This document shows, one piece after another, positions 5,477 to 9,969 of a stretch of DNA of 61,990 nucleotides. The stretch's first letter is position 1; each line of letters starts with the position of its first letter. The translations under genes were made by a program, and so were the position numbers. The stretch lies in NCBI GenBank assembly GCA_019745315.1, contig JAIETH010000005.1, positions 1 through 61,990 of the forward strand. Direction: 5' to 3'. The notes below the pieces were generated by a model, which was given only the letters and a program-made list of their open reading frames with translations, searched no databases and was not told where the DNA came from. The DNA comes from Patescibacteria group bacterium. Its GTDB lineage: Bacteria > Patescibacteriota > Minisyncoccia > Phycocordibacterales > UBA918.

Positions 5477-6082
5477 TTATTTTTTGCTGCGGGTTGCAGC
5501 GATGAAGCTGGTGTAGTTCCACTTAAGGTCTTGAATTGATTCCTCAAGGATGTCGAGTTTGTATAATTTTGCTGCAGCACGTGAGGCTATAACCGCTGTC
5601 CCCTCTCCTAATACGCCACTCGCAAGATCCGCAGCGGCTTTCGCTGTGTCCTCATAAACTTCAATCTGTGCTTGAGGCCACGCACGTTTGAGGTACATTC
5701 TGCACTGCTTGATAGCTTGGTCGTGCGACGTGATAGTAGTGACCTCGCCCGCCTTAATCCCCTTTCGAACCAAAAGATTGTGGTGGATGTCTATCTCAAA
5801 AATTTTCTTAATATCGAAATTATGGCGCGACATTGCGTGTACTGCCTCGAGTACTATTCCCCCGTTACTATTCTCTATGGGAAATATAGCAGTCGTTATC
5901 TTCCCTGTCTCCAGAGCAGAAAGTACATTTTCAGCATTGAGTAGATATGCAAGCTCAAAACCCTTCAGCTTCATCTTTGCGGCATACGTCCGCGCAGCTT
6001 CTTCAGAAAAACTGCCTCGTGCACCCATAAGGCCAATGATTTCTTTGCTCGCCTCACCTTTCTTTGAAGTGATTTTTTTCAT
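5477..6082 (-). CDS. pheA: Prephenate dehydratase catalytic domain only (no ACT or chorismate mutase domain)
   Basis: GARGSFSEEAA, PIENSNGG, HDQAIKQC, TAKAA, AVIAS, IQDLKWNYTSF (canonical form ends TRF). Confidence 0.8.
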   Translation of the reverse strand: MKKITSKKGEASKEIIGLMGARGSFSEEAARTYAAKMKLKGFELAYLLNAENVLSALETGKITTAIFPIENSNGGIVLEAVHAMSRHNFDIKKIFEIDIHHNLLVRKGIKAGEVTTITSHDQAIKQCRMYLKRAWPQAQIEVYEDTAKAAADLASGVLGEGTAVIASRAAAKLYKLDILEESIQDLKWNYTSFIAATRSKK

Positions 6083-6124
6083 GATACGTAAGACTATATC
6101 ACAGAGTATTTTACGTAAAAACAC

Positions 6125-6201
6125 AGATGTCTTTTATAAAAGACATCTAAAAGACTCTTATCCACACATATGTCCTTTACGCTCAATCGTAAAGGACATA
6201 T
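6125..6201. promoter_or_regulatory. 24-bp perfect palindrome, a perfect DnaA box and a 14-bp hairpin
   Basis: AGATGTCTTTTATAAAAGACATCT (6125-6148); TTATCCACA (6158-6166); ATATGTCCTTTACG/CGTAAAGGACATAT (6168-6201). Confidence 0.55.
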
Positions 6202-6259
6202 AGTAGCGGTAGGCCCTTGAAGGCTATGGATATCAATGAGATATCCGAGATGATCTTTT

Positions 6260-6558
6260 AAAAAAGAAGAAGTAATACCTCCAAATTACTTCAGTTCTTT
6301 CACATATTCCACCCACTTTGAACCAAGACGTTGCGGCTGAATGATTCCGCCCTGAGTATCCTAGGTGTCTTTTATAAGACTACTAGGGTGTTGAGGACGG
6401 GGTCATTCTACACATGCCCCAATAGAATGGTTCTCATGGAGGCCAATCGCAACGAGACTTCGTCTCAACGCAAGATCCACTAGGATCACGGCCTCTCCAA
6501 AGCCCGACTCAAACGTTACTAATTAACTACCACATTAGCAGCGTACAGCCGGGCTTTT
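6260..6558 (-). ncRNA. Unassigned structured RNA candidate of about 300 nt
   Basis: No ORF of 60 aa or more. At least six stems, several pairing as G.U only on the minus strand. Ends in GAAGUAAU/AUUACUUC followed by UUCUUUUUU. Confidence 0.5.
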
Positions 6559-6593
6559 GTATTTCCTCCCTATTCCTATTTGGTTTAGTTCGC

Positions 6594-6622
6594 AAAAAAG
6601 CGCCTGGTTAGGCGCCCTTTTT
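6594..6622 (-). terminator. Terminator after cca
   Basis: AAAAAAGCGCC-TGGTTA-GGCGCCCTTTTT. Confidence 0.6.
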
Positions 6623-6645
6623 AGTATGTGTATCTATAGAAGAGG

Positions 6646-8124
6646 TTATCCGACGTGGTATTTCTTATGGATTTCTTTGATGGCGCCCCGCTCCTCTTCT
6701 CTTTGCTTCTCTCTACCCTGCTCTCCAAGCGAAATTAGCTCTTCAAGCGGCATTTTCATAAGTACTAAAGCCCTACTCTCTAGGTAGTCCTCTGTGTTTT
6801 TGAGTGGATCTTCTAAAACCTCTTCAAGTAATGCGTGGAGTGTATGACCAAGCTTTGGTCCAGGCTTCTCAGCGCTCAGTTCCATGATGCGAGAACCATC
6901 AATCTTAAGCATTTTGACAGTAATAGGGTCTCGAAGAGCTTCTTCTACCATTGCGATATACTTTCTGAGTCGAAATGGCTGTTCTTTTGGTCGTCCTGTC
7001 CCTACGCGGTCGCAGATTCTGAGGTTAAGTAAATCCCATATATTTTCTTGTCCTACGTTTCGTATCGTTCTTCTGACCGCTGAGAGCGTTACTTCGTCTG
7101 GATCTGAGAAGAACATATGCCAACGAACCAAGTTTGCCACCTTTTCAACTGTTTCACGTGGAAACTTAAGCTCTTGGAGAGCCTTCTTTGTTACACGTGA
7201 ACCCACAACCTCGTGTCCGTGGAAGCTCCAGTCTTTCTTTTCTTCCGCCCAGCGCCGTGTTTCTGGCTTAGAAATATCATGAAACAGTGCAGCGAGGCGA
7301 ATTTCGAGTGACCAACCCTTGTCAGCCGCATGTTGAAGTGTGCGCACGAGGTGCTCATACACATCAAAGGCATGAGCTTGGTTTTGAGAAACACCAATAC
7401 TTCGCAGTACATCCGGCGCAACATACGGGAGCATACCAAGCTTTTCAAGCAAAATAATGCCCTGCATAGGCTGTTTTGATTCCAATATTCGCACAAATTC
7501 GTCTCGAATACGTTCTTTTGATATCCGACTTAGATTATTTGCATTTTTAGCTATAGCGGCCATTGTGGCTCCTTCTAGGGTCAGCTCAAGTTCCACGACA
7601 AGTCGAACTGCGCGCATCATACGAAGTGCGTCTTCTGCAAAGCGGTCACGAGCTACTCCTACTGCACGGAGGCGTCTATCTTTTAGATCGGCTTGGCCAT
7701 CGAAAAGATCTATAAATTCAGCTGTTTTTGGGCGATATGCAATAGCGTTTATGGTGAAATCACGTCGTTTGAGGTCATCTTCTATCGAGGTGCTGAAGAG
7801 GACGCTATCAGGTCTTCTAGCATCTGAATATGTTGATTCAATGCGGTACGGGGTTACTTCTATGACTTTTACCCGTGGATCGAGCGCTTCCTCGTATACG
7901 ACTCCAATTGTGCCGAATTCGTTGTTTTGATAGGTATGCTCAAAAAGACTGACTATTTCTTCCGGTCGTGCGTTCGTTGTGATATCCCAGTCCTTAGGCA
8001 GCCTTTTTATTAAAAGATCACGGACGCACCCCCCTACTAAATATGCTTCAAACCCACCTTTTTCTAACGTTTCTGCTACATCTAAAACCTCGCGTGGAAT
8101 ATCAGATAGGGTGATCGTTGACAT
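6646..8124 (-). CDS. cca: CCA-adding tRNA nucleotidyltransferase with HD domain
   Basis: LVGGCVRD, DWDITT, RRDFTINA, EDALRMMRA, ERIRDE, LFHDISK. The tRNA genes in this window do not encode CCA. Confidence 0.9.
   Translation of the reverse strand: MSTITLSDIPREVLDVAETLEKGGFEAYLVGGCVRDLLIKRLPKDWDITTNARPEEIVSLFEHTYQNNEFGTIGVVYEEALDPRVKVIEVTPYRIESTYSDARRPDSVLFSTSIEDDLKRRDFTINAIAYRPKTAEFIDLFDGQADLKDRRLRAVGVARDRFAEDALRMMRAVRLVVELELTLEGATMAAIAKNANNLSRISKERIRDEFVRILESKQPMQGIILLEKLGMLPYVAPDVLRSIGVSQNQAHAFDVYEHLVRTLQHAADKGWSLEIRLAALFHDISKPETRRWAEEKKDWSFHGHEVVGSRVTKKALQELKFPRETVEKVANLVRWHMFFSDPDEVTLSAVRRTIRNVGQENIWDLLNLRICDRVGTGRPKEQPFRLRKYIAMVEEALRDPITVKMLKIDGSRIMELSAEKPGPKLGHTLHALLEEVLEDPLKNTEDYLESRALVLMKMPLEELISLGEQGREKQREEERGAIKEIHKKYHVG
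7150..7204. other. Two parS-like sites inside cca
   Basis: TGTTTCACGTGGAAAC (7150-7165) and TGTTACACGTGAACCC (7189-7204), against consensus TGTTNCACGTGAAACA. Confidence 0.45.
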
Positions 8125-9240: not shown

Positions 9241-9400
9241 ACATACAGTTTCAAAATATCAATAAAAAGCCTATAAAATATAAGCAGATTGTCCACACGG
9301 TAGGGGTACATAGACCTGTGCATAAGACAGGGGATATGTGTATAAAGGACGTCTTTTATATAATTGTTTTTTAACAAATGGCTTAAAATAAGGCTTTTTA
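9241..9400. promoter_or_regulatory. DnaA-box cluster with AT-rich flanks (oriC candidate)
   Basis: TTGTCCACA 9289-9297, TGTGCATAA 9317-9325, TGTGTATAA 9337-9345. AT-rich 9241-9288 and 9351-9400. Confidence 0.45.
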
Positions 9401-9876
9401 AAAAAGACAAGTTTCATGTGAAACAGAGTATATTTCTCAAAAATGTGAAAAAAGAAGCAAAACATTTACGCATTGGAAGAATTGGAGAGCGGGCTGTGGC
9501 CAATCACCTCAAAAGGAAGGGATTTACAGAACTTGAATCAAACTTCCGTACTAAGACAGGAGAAATTGATCTTATCTTCAGAAAAGAAGAAAAAGTTTAC
9601 TTCGTAGAAGTTAAGACTGTCTCTGTTGAGAGTGGGAGAGCTTCTGTTTCATATGAAACAGAGGGTGGGGGGTACAGAGATGTTTCACGTGGAATATATA
9701 GACCGGAGGATAATGTGCATCATGATAAGTTACGAAAGATTCTTAATACCATTCAAGTATGGATATCTTTGAATAAGTATGAGGGTTTGTGGCAGCTTGA
9801 TATTGCTTCTGTATATCTTGACCTTAAGGATAAGCGCGCACAGGTACGTTTCATAGAAAATATCATAGTGGAGTAA
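9364..9876 (+). CDS. yraN: YraN family (UPF0102) PD-(D/E)xK nuclease-like protein; start uncertain
   Basis: GRIGERAVANHL, NFRTKTGEIDLI, YFVEVKT, WQLDIASV. Confidence 0.85.
   Translation: MFFNKWLKIRLFKKDKFHVKQSIFLKNVKKEAKHLRIGRIGERAVANHLKRKGFTELESNFRTKTGEIDLIFRKEEKVYFVEVKTVSVESGRASVSYETEGGGYRDVSRGIYRPEDNVHHDKLRKILNTIQVWISLNKYEGLWQLDIASVYLDLKDKRAQVRFIENIIVE
9410..9696. other. Three parS-like sites within the yraN ORF
   Basis: AGTTTCATGTGAAACA 9410-9425; TGTTTCATATGAAACA 9645-9660 (perfect palindrome); TGTTTCACGTGGAATA 9681-9696. Confidence 0.7.
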
Positions 9877-9969
9877 AGGACATCGAATGTCCTTTAGAGA
9901 ATTTTGTTTTTTGTGCGTTCTAACGCTTGGCTTTCTTTAATGGTGCGTGCTACTATGTTGCAACAAAAG

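Follow-up and report, generated by a model that had tools for sequence, protein, structure and literature searches.

The 61,990-nt window analyzed here, the whole stretch of contig JAIETH010000005.1 from a Patescibacteria group bacterium, contains an intergenic gap between cca (6646-8124, minus strand) and the prephenate dehydratase gene pheA (5477-6124, minus strand) in which no credible open reading frame (ORF) was found. Comparison with homologous sequences indicates that this gap holds a real, undescribed structured non-coding RNA (ncRNA) gene, and that almost every genome of a single Parcubacteria (Kaiserbacteria-like) family carries it in one copy. Its best explanation, to which we give a probability of about 0.42, is an independent gene on the plus strand whose RNA acts in trans through C-rich elements. 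As expected of a stand-alone ncRNA gene, a predicted and conserved sigma-70-type promoter and a predicted Rho-independent terminator bracket sequence that is non-coding, structured, and conserved. The RNA is likely ~350 nt long here and 400-450 nt in relatives, as judged from these signals. Gene identities around the locus were taken from Pfam.

A preliminary description of the locus had proposed an orphan structured RNA of ~300 nt at 6260-6558, read from the minus strand. The gap indeed folded much better than shuffled sequence on both strands (6250-6590; z-scores of -5.3 for the minus and -6.0 for the plus strand). Indels of 1 nt and 4 nt sit within the most conserved block (6255-6322), excluding a coding function for it. 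A small protein or leader peptide was rejected on the same grounds: the indels break the frame, candidate ORF frames shift among relatives, and no start codon lies at a proper distance.

Initial BLAST searches against 60 relatives at first recovered only this block of ~65 nt in two other genera, in both of which the block followed cca and the hairpins were arranged alike. All eight closer relatives retrieved via their cca homologues showed cca, a gap of 490-670 nt, and then pheA or a convergent xth. A first covariance model, R1, gave weak matches in further genera, one per genome. In the flanks of these matches, conservation extended well past the hairpin previously taken for an intrinsic terminator, in the order (minus-strand notation) of a conserved linker, a variable-length hairpin P5, CUGCUCGCCCUUUCUGGGCC with a small hairpin P6, an invariant palindrome (hairpin A), one or two DnaA-box-like 9-mers, and another palindrome (hairpin B). 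A second covariance model, R2, covering linker-P4-P5-P6, detected exactly one copy in 144 of 165 family genomes (114 of the 127 of high quality) and in 9 of 10 genera. A metagenome scan with the 15-mer TAGCCTTCAAGGGCC returned 120 chance matches and no homologue. Literature searches yielded no account of this RNA, and Rfam has no entry for it.

We analyzed covariation in two alignments. For nine close relatives, RNAalifold predicted 68 pairs; 92.8% of cells were paired, compared with 86.5% in shuffles and 34-48% in slid controls, and 22 pairs were compensated, compared with 11.4 in shuffles. In the R2 alignment, made up of 69 distinct sequences from the family, 92.7% of cells were paired (71.3% in shuffles, 29-55% in slid controls), 25 of 28 pairs were compensated, and double-change cells numbered 304, compared with 69 in shuffles. 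The observed values were matched by 0 of 500 shuffles in either alignment. For the largest genus, the alignment covered the 3' domain (minus notation). The preliminary description had pointed to the regions downstream of cca as the place to look for covariation, and covarying homologues do exist, in the nine relatives as well as in the 69 sequences.

The predicted fold strings together independent hairpins and a three-way junction, with invariant sequence in loops and linkers and with helices that covary freely and vary in length. Most of the stems proposed earlier were recovered and covary. Stem 1 (P1; 6499-6557) is present and is kept in relatives with different sequences, and the three-way junction closed by GAGGCCG/UGGCCUC (6439-6495) with its two hairpins, the long-range GAACCA/UGGUUC helix (6320-6325 with 6428-6433), and the CCUAG/CUAGG hairpin are present and kept in divergent relatives. 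The long-range helix reads CAAUGAA/UUCAUUG, GCCAU/AUGGU, and others in relatives, and the closing helix of the junction occurs as GAGGCC/GGCCUC, GAGCC/GGCUC, GAGUC/GACUC, and CAAGC/GCUUG. The AAGUAAU/AUUACUU hairpin (6269-6292) is also present and kept in relatives of different sequence, as an internal hairpin and not the intrinsic terminator it had been called: its loop is invariant, its U-tract is unconserved, and conserved sequence and structure continue for ~60-150 nt further. The proposed GCGG/CCGC stem was not supported by the comparative data and gave way to a long hairpin at 6339-6408, GAAUGA-cc-CCGUCCU-caa-(hairpin)-cuc-AGGGCGG-aa-UCAUUC, with 7 + 3 compensated pairs in the nine relatives. 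The nine relatives share this one hairpin in place of the two mutually exclusive hairpins suggested before. Among the remaining helices, P5' showed compensatory changes in all of its 16 pairs (69 sequences), and P6' is kept as GCCC/GGGC or GCCU/AGGC and as GCAACCUC/GAGGAUUGC in relatives L215/L217. We also considered whether the tail pairs with P1 or with the GGGUGG linker and rejected both possibilities; neither showed covariation, and the small hairpin P6 was supported instead. The conserved unit runs from ~6211 to ~6562, in addition to a promoter module at 6158-6204, rather than over the 6260-6558 proposed initially.

We then asked which strand is transcribed. A promoter scan of 6000-6760 found a single promoter-like site, TTTACG-17-TATAGT at 6176-6204 on the plus strand, and none upstream of P1; the equivalent site was also the only one that the scan found in L074, a member of another genus. 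Among 65 distinct loci, 64 had TTTACN-spacer-TAnnnT on the plus strand, 63 of them with a spacer of exactly 17 nt, compared with 4 that had the pattern on the opposite strand. The promoter spacer is set by the loop of hairpin A, whose length is 10 nt at 64 of these 65 loci. Almost every RNA-bearing locus has one or two DnaA-box-like 9-mers (TGKGNATA boxes) at a distance of 2-16 nt from hairpin A. Hairpin A is widespread in Patescibacteria, as far as organism names in public records, which are unreliable, can tell, and is probably an operator. Hairpin B is conserved as TGTCCTTTATAAAGGACA in relatives. In two other Patescibacteria metagenome-assembled genomes (MAGs), L237 and L252, the same promoter cassette leads into plus-oriented RNAs, which we counted in favor of the plus strand.

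At the opposite end of the unit, the 3' side of P1 on the plus strand carries a mean of 6.4 U in 8 nt (at least 6 in 30 of 32 loci), compared with a mean of 4.5 on the other side. In minus notation, an A-run precedes P1 and few T follow it, making P1 a canonical terminator for a plus-strand transcript; it is possible that P1' is also a second terminator for the convergent cca. Folding energies initially pointed the other way. In 27 of 28 homologues the minus strand had the lower raw minimum free energy (MFE), and G.U pairs were also more numerous on that strand. The minus strand consists of 56-61% G+U, and its MFE advantage results from base composition: minus-strand dinucleotide shuffles fold ~25 kcal/mol better than plus-strand ones. 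After shuffle correction, the plus strand had the better z-score in 27 of 34 homologues (p=0.002), and the plus-strand transcript itself has a predicted fold of -122.7 kcal/mol (z -7.2). Raw MFE and G.U counts were accordingly dropped as a strand test, and the argument from G.U pairs by which the preliminary description had chosen the minus strand does not survive correction for base composition. By the promoter, the P1 U-tract, and the composition-corrected z-scores, the functional strand is most probably the plus strand.

Read from this strand, the RNA is A/C-rich, and its variable, covarying helices hold three invariant C-rich single strands, all predicted to be unpaired. The most striking is the P4' loop ACCUCCAA, which is invariant across all alignments, carries ACCUCC, and matches the core of the 16S anti-Shine-Dalgarno (anti-SD) tail. 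The organism's own 16S rRNA lacks this core: its 3' end reads GGAUUAAUUCC instead of GGAUCACCUCCUUA. On contig C2 at ~34.5 kb, the 16S 3' end was seen as ...GUCGUGGAUUAAUUCC..., without a CCUCC anti-SD. Loss of the anti-SD has been described in about half of Parcubacteria (PMC9297842). In the genome at hand, GGAGG lies upstream of just 1.6% of long ORF starts. Separately, TATAC/TATAA/CTATA words, resembling TATA(C/A)T-type -10 boxes, are enriched 4-6 fold at -22..-4 of long ORFs. The sequence around gene starts suggests that mRNAs are mostly leaderless. With a 16S rRNA devoid of the anti-SD and a loop that contains CCUCC, the RNA invariantly displays a sequence that the ribosome has lost, in a genome where obvious SD-type targets are missing.

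We propose the following sequence of events for the plus-strand gene. Its promoter (-35 TTTACG, 17 nt, -10 TATAGT) would lie within the invariant palindrome, preceded by a DnaA box, and both DnaA and a repressor that binds the palindrome would regulate RNA synthesis. Transcription would begin near 6211 and stop at the long P1 hairpin and U-tract near 6562, converging with cca. The exposed C-rich elements of the RNA would then act in trans on G-rich (GGAGG-like) RNA partners, which they would either pair with or sequester. This last step, the mode of action, is put forward tentatively. The features of the proposed gene are compiled in Table 1.

Table 1. Features of the proposed plus-strand RNA gene and its surroundings (window coordinates)
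Feature	Position	Strand	Remarks
Palindrome hairpin B (AGATGTCTTTTATAAAAGACATCT)	6124..6149	unstranded	Half-sites are those of hairpin A; terminator-like on the minus strand
Perfect DnaA-box consensus TTATCCACA	6158..6166	+	Directly upstream of the -35
Inverted repeat, hairpin A (ATATGTCCTTTAC-N-GTAAAGGACATAT)	6168..6201	+	Invariant; extends across the -35 and the spacer into the -10
Sigma-70-type promoter TTTACG-17-TATAGT (predicted)	6176..6204	+	
Proposed RNA gene, ~350 nt	6211..6562	+	Start inferred from the -10, end from the terminator; contains the 6260-6558 described previously
P6', small 5'-terminal hairpin GCCC-UUGA-AGGC	6213..6224	+	
P5' hairpin	6228..6246	+	Short here, up to ~80 nt in relatives
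P4' hairpin GAAGUAAU/AUUACUUC	6269..6292	+	Loop ACCUCCAA at 6277-6284; the former "terminator"; 8 pairs covary
C-rich linker UUCCACCCAC	6300..6319	+	Conserved, unpaired
Domain closed by the long-range helix 6320-6325/6428-6433	6320..6433	+	Contains the conserved long hairpin 6339-6408
Three-way junction with two hairpins	6439..6495	+	Hairpins covary too
P1' long hairpin and U-rich tail UUUUGUAUUU	6499..6564	+	Stem covaries; putative intrinsic terminator of the plus-strand RNA
cca terminator hairpin	6590..6620	unstranded	Terminator-like in both directions

Other explanations of the same data were weighed against this one. The plus-strand RNA could be a protein-binding scaffold or decoy, for example a mimic of the 16S 3' tail or an A/C-rich ligand that titrates a ribosome-associated or RNA-binding protein, as CrcZ, CsrB, and 6S RNA titrate proteins. 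Taken by itself this is rather unlikely, and yet we regard it as nearly as likely as the base-pairing mechanism. The concentration of invariant sequence in loops and linkers on freely covarying helices, the mismatch or wobble that stays invariant within the most conserved helix, the large multi-domain architecture, and the lack of SD-led mRNAs as obvious pairing targets would all suit a decoy; on the other hand, the locus has no linked gene for a candidate partner protein, its neighbors being cca, xth, and pheA, which vary among relatives, and no protein-sponge RNA in Rfam resembles it. Several observations weigh against a plus-strand RNA that pairs with G-rich partners. GGAGG-like targets for the CCUCC loop are not enriched at gene starts. 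In a 400-genome sample of the class, R2 matched only the genome that holds the window, a search in which 7 candidates per genome were scored and sensitivity was low, so that absence outside the family is not established. The others concern the strand, and would fit an RNA transcribed from the minus strand, as in the preliminary description, by read-through from cca or from an unrecognized promoter; it would display a GGAGGU loop and GGGUGGG and end at hairpin B, whose U-tract serves minus-strand transcripts only and which looks like a terminator on that strand. At consensus pairs (minus notation), the ratio of observed to shuffled wobble was 0.48 for G.U, 0.30 for A.C, and 0.24 for other mismatches, a nearly neutral signal in which G.U is slightly better tolerated than A.C and the plus strand is not favored. 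One consensus position is dominated by G.U and another is rich in A.C; a P5 position is G.U in 29 of 50 sequences, and a U.G in helix 3 is invariant in 9 of 9, both of which become A.C mismatches on the plus strand. In L219, moreover, P1 begins 17 nt after the cca stop codon. Beyond the compositional origin of its MFE advantage and the z-scores that favor the plus strand, a minus-strand RNA faces the absence of a promoter site upstream of P1 in our scan and a strong cca terminator before P1 in the window, and it leaves the conserved A-run 5' of P1, the fixed 17-nt promoter geometry, and the conserved TAnnnT unexplained. We consider it unlikely, somewhat more so than the decoy.

Selection on both strands or on the DNA itself, in the form of a sense/antisense pair or of a structured DNA region tied to DnaA and a palindrome-binding protein, would account for helices that are almost purely Watson-Crick (G.U 4.3% and A.C 2.3% of cells), for terminator-like signals on both strands, and for the DnaA boxes and invariant palindromes that flank the unit. 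It appears improbable, given that the locus is not a replication origin and that a folded RNA is what invariant unpaired loops usually signify when the helices that carry them are hypervariable and differ in length. Least probable of all, and largely refuted, is a divergent member of a known family, namely SRP (signal recognition particle) RNA, 6S RNA, a T-box leader, RNase P RNA, or tmRNA. In its favor are the undetectable SRP RNA of this genome and a minus-strand linker, AAUUAGGGUGG, that resembles the 5' half of the T-box sequence. Against it stand the searches with Rfam 15 (4227 models). At the gathering score, the window yielded four tRNAs only; at E<=10, both strands of 6050-6750 gave chance-level matches of at most 22.6 bits; at E<=0.1, ten homologous loci gave nothing relevant; and 12 homologous loci remained without a family match at gathering and permissive thresholds. 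The view of the preliminary description that this is an orphan RNA outside Rfam, distinct from tmRNA, RNase P RNA, SRP RNA, and standard riboswitches, is thus borne out: tmRNA was located at C8:18546-18942 (89.5 bits) and RNase P RNA at C10:14692-15058 (126.8 bits), ARAGORN found no tmRNA at the locus, and no Rfam riboswitch or SRP match was obtained. 6S RNA is a rod of ~180-200 nt with a central bubble mimicking an open promoter; its model (RF00013) gave no match at E<=10, and the fold observed here is not a rod.

Divergent SRP RNA and a T-box leader were the two known families that were examined most closely and rejected. The former was attractive as no SRP RNA is detectable, RF00169/RF01854 having given no match in the genome itself or in 37-41 relatives. 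No domain IV motif (helix 8, with a GNRA tetraloop and conserved internal loops) exists, and a regular-expression search for it hit coding sites only. Ffh and FtsY are absent, so that an SRP RNA is not expected. In this connection, the whole SRP pathway is seemingly absent from this genome and from 24-40 relatives of the order. No SRP RNA, small or large, was found in 37-41 genomes; PF00448 (Ffh/FtsY GTPase) gave P-loop-level matches only (18-22 bits) in 25 genomes, whereas 14 of 14 control genomes scored above the cut-off; and the genome under study (98.8% complete) contains no GxxGxGKTT, TKxDG, or SRP-type DTAGR motif. Our literature searches found no report of such an absence. As for the T-box leader (RF00230), the T-box-like linker is followed by a hairpin, but the model gave no match at the locus, and P1 is a near-perfect hairpin without Stem I or specifier-loop features. 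There is also no complementary 3' strand to form an antiterminator, and the strand is probably the wrong one. A regulated downstream gene of the T-box type is mostly missing; in most relatives a convergent xth lies there. The best T-box match in the genome, at C4:3816-4044 on the minus strand, reached 19.9 bits (E 0.009), compared with a gathering score of 93 bits.

Although no family matches, the proposed RNA has analogues among C-rich-loop regulators. Like RsaE/RoxS of Firmicutes, the CcsR/'Cuckoo' RNAs of Alphaproteobacteria, and RNAIII of Staphylococcus, a 514-nt multi-hairpin RNA, it would come from an independent gene that has a promoter and an intrinsic terminator to itself, and would bear conserved C-rich, anti-SD-like motifs in loops or linkers (here ACCUCCAA, UCCCACCC, and CCCCUU) on variable supporting helices. 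The likeness is confined to a possible way of working: none of these RNAs gave an Rfam match at the locus in sequence or structure, and unlike them the RNA measures 350-450 nt with at least 7 helices, its promoter carries DnaA boxes and a palindromic operator, and its host has neither a 16S anti-SD nor SD-led mRNAs, so the usual target, the SD region of an mRNA, is missing. The canonical 16S 3' tail (anti-SD, GAUCACCUCCUUA) shares ACCUCC with the invariant loop, and the L237 RNA has CCUCCUUA; by contrast with that tail, the RNA would be a separate transcript far from the rRNA operon, with the motif in a hairpin loop and not at a free 3' end. The raiA motif RNA, OLE, ROOL, GOLLD, and HEARO are likewise several hundred nt long, multi-domain, supported by covariation, and restricted to a single lineage, and their neighboring genes do not reveal their function either. 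The RNA described here differs from them in architecture and motifs, in the lack of an Rfam match on either strand, and in being strictly single-copy in a family of the Candidate Phyla Radiation (CPR).

The surroundings of the gene differ among relatives. In the window and six close relatives, pheA separates the RNA promoter region from xth, whereas it is missing from this position in L219, L220, and the other genera, in which xth is directly convergent. In many genomes of the largest genus (L068-L079), extra conserved hairpin modules are found beyond P1 (upstream in minus notation), such as (U)AAGUUCRCAAUA-hairpin-UUUGYUCAYUU and ACGAAGGAAA-long hairpin-UUUCCUGAAGU. In plus notation, one of these modules resembles a terminator. 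The DnaA boxes had raised the idea of a replication origin at the locus, which was rejected because contig C2 carries both dnaA and the GC-skew switch and the skew keeps its sign here. dnaA (C2:142.2-143.5 kb) is beside a switch of GC skew from negative to ~zero/positive (C2 135-160 kb), a region that is probably oriC. An opposite switch at ~180 kb on C1 probably marks the replication terminus. Positions 9290-9350 and 9874-9897 of the window hold two further features. One is a second cluster of DnaA-box-like 9-mers (TTGTCCACA, TGTGCATAA, and TGTGTATAA), which carries a TAAAGGAC/GTCTTTTA repeat and adjoins an AT-rich stretch and a parS-like site. The other is an inverted repeat, TAAAGGACAT-CGA-ATGTCCTTTA, that follows the yraN-like ORF. 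Within this genome, paired TAAAGGAC repeats are confined to this 4-kb stretch.

The promoter cassette was also seen apart from this RNA. At L237:1318-1610 and L252:6400-6730, a DnaA box, TGTCCTTTA-N10-TAAAGGACA, and TAnnnT precede different RNAs of ~250 nt. Both lie in plus orientation, match no Rfam family, and have an unpaired CCUCC within or beside a terminal hairpin, after which the sequence is U-rich; the anti-SD-like sequence is CCUCCUUA in L237 and CACCUCC in L252. These RNAs may belong to a wider class of CCUCC-bearing RNAs that share a promoter type. A speculative extension, which we think has little chance of being correct, is that in Parcubacteria without a 16S anti-SD this sequence survives on a separate, DnaA-controlled RNA as a free-standing anti-SD module. 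If so, the module would deliver to ribosomes, or withhold from them, a few GGAGG-bearing RNAs of host or phage, or would fill the site of the SD/anti-SD helix on the ribosome, and the L237 and L252 cassettes with their CCUCC RNAs would mark a whole class of such modules.

These findings also bear on how such genes are sought and read. Raw folding energy and G.U counts can mislead on the strand where base composition is skewed, and the promoter cassette (DnaA box, TGTCCTTTA-N10-TAAAGGACA palindrome, TAnnnT) can be reused to find further RNA genes in Patescibacteria. CPR/Patescibacteria have tiny genomes with little non-coding DNA, and an RNA of 350-450 nt kept in a single copy in ~90% of a family likely does something important. 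Its invariant ACCUCC loop, a sequence lost from the 16S rRNA of a host in which most genes look leaderless, offers a concrete handle on rewired translation initiation.

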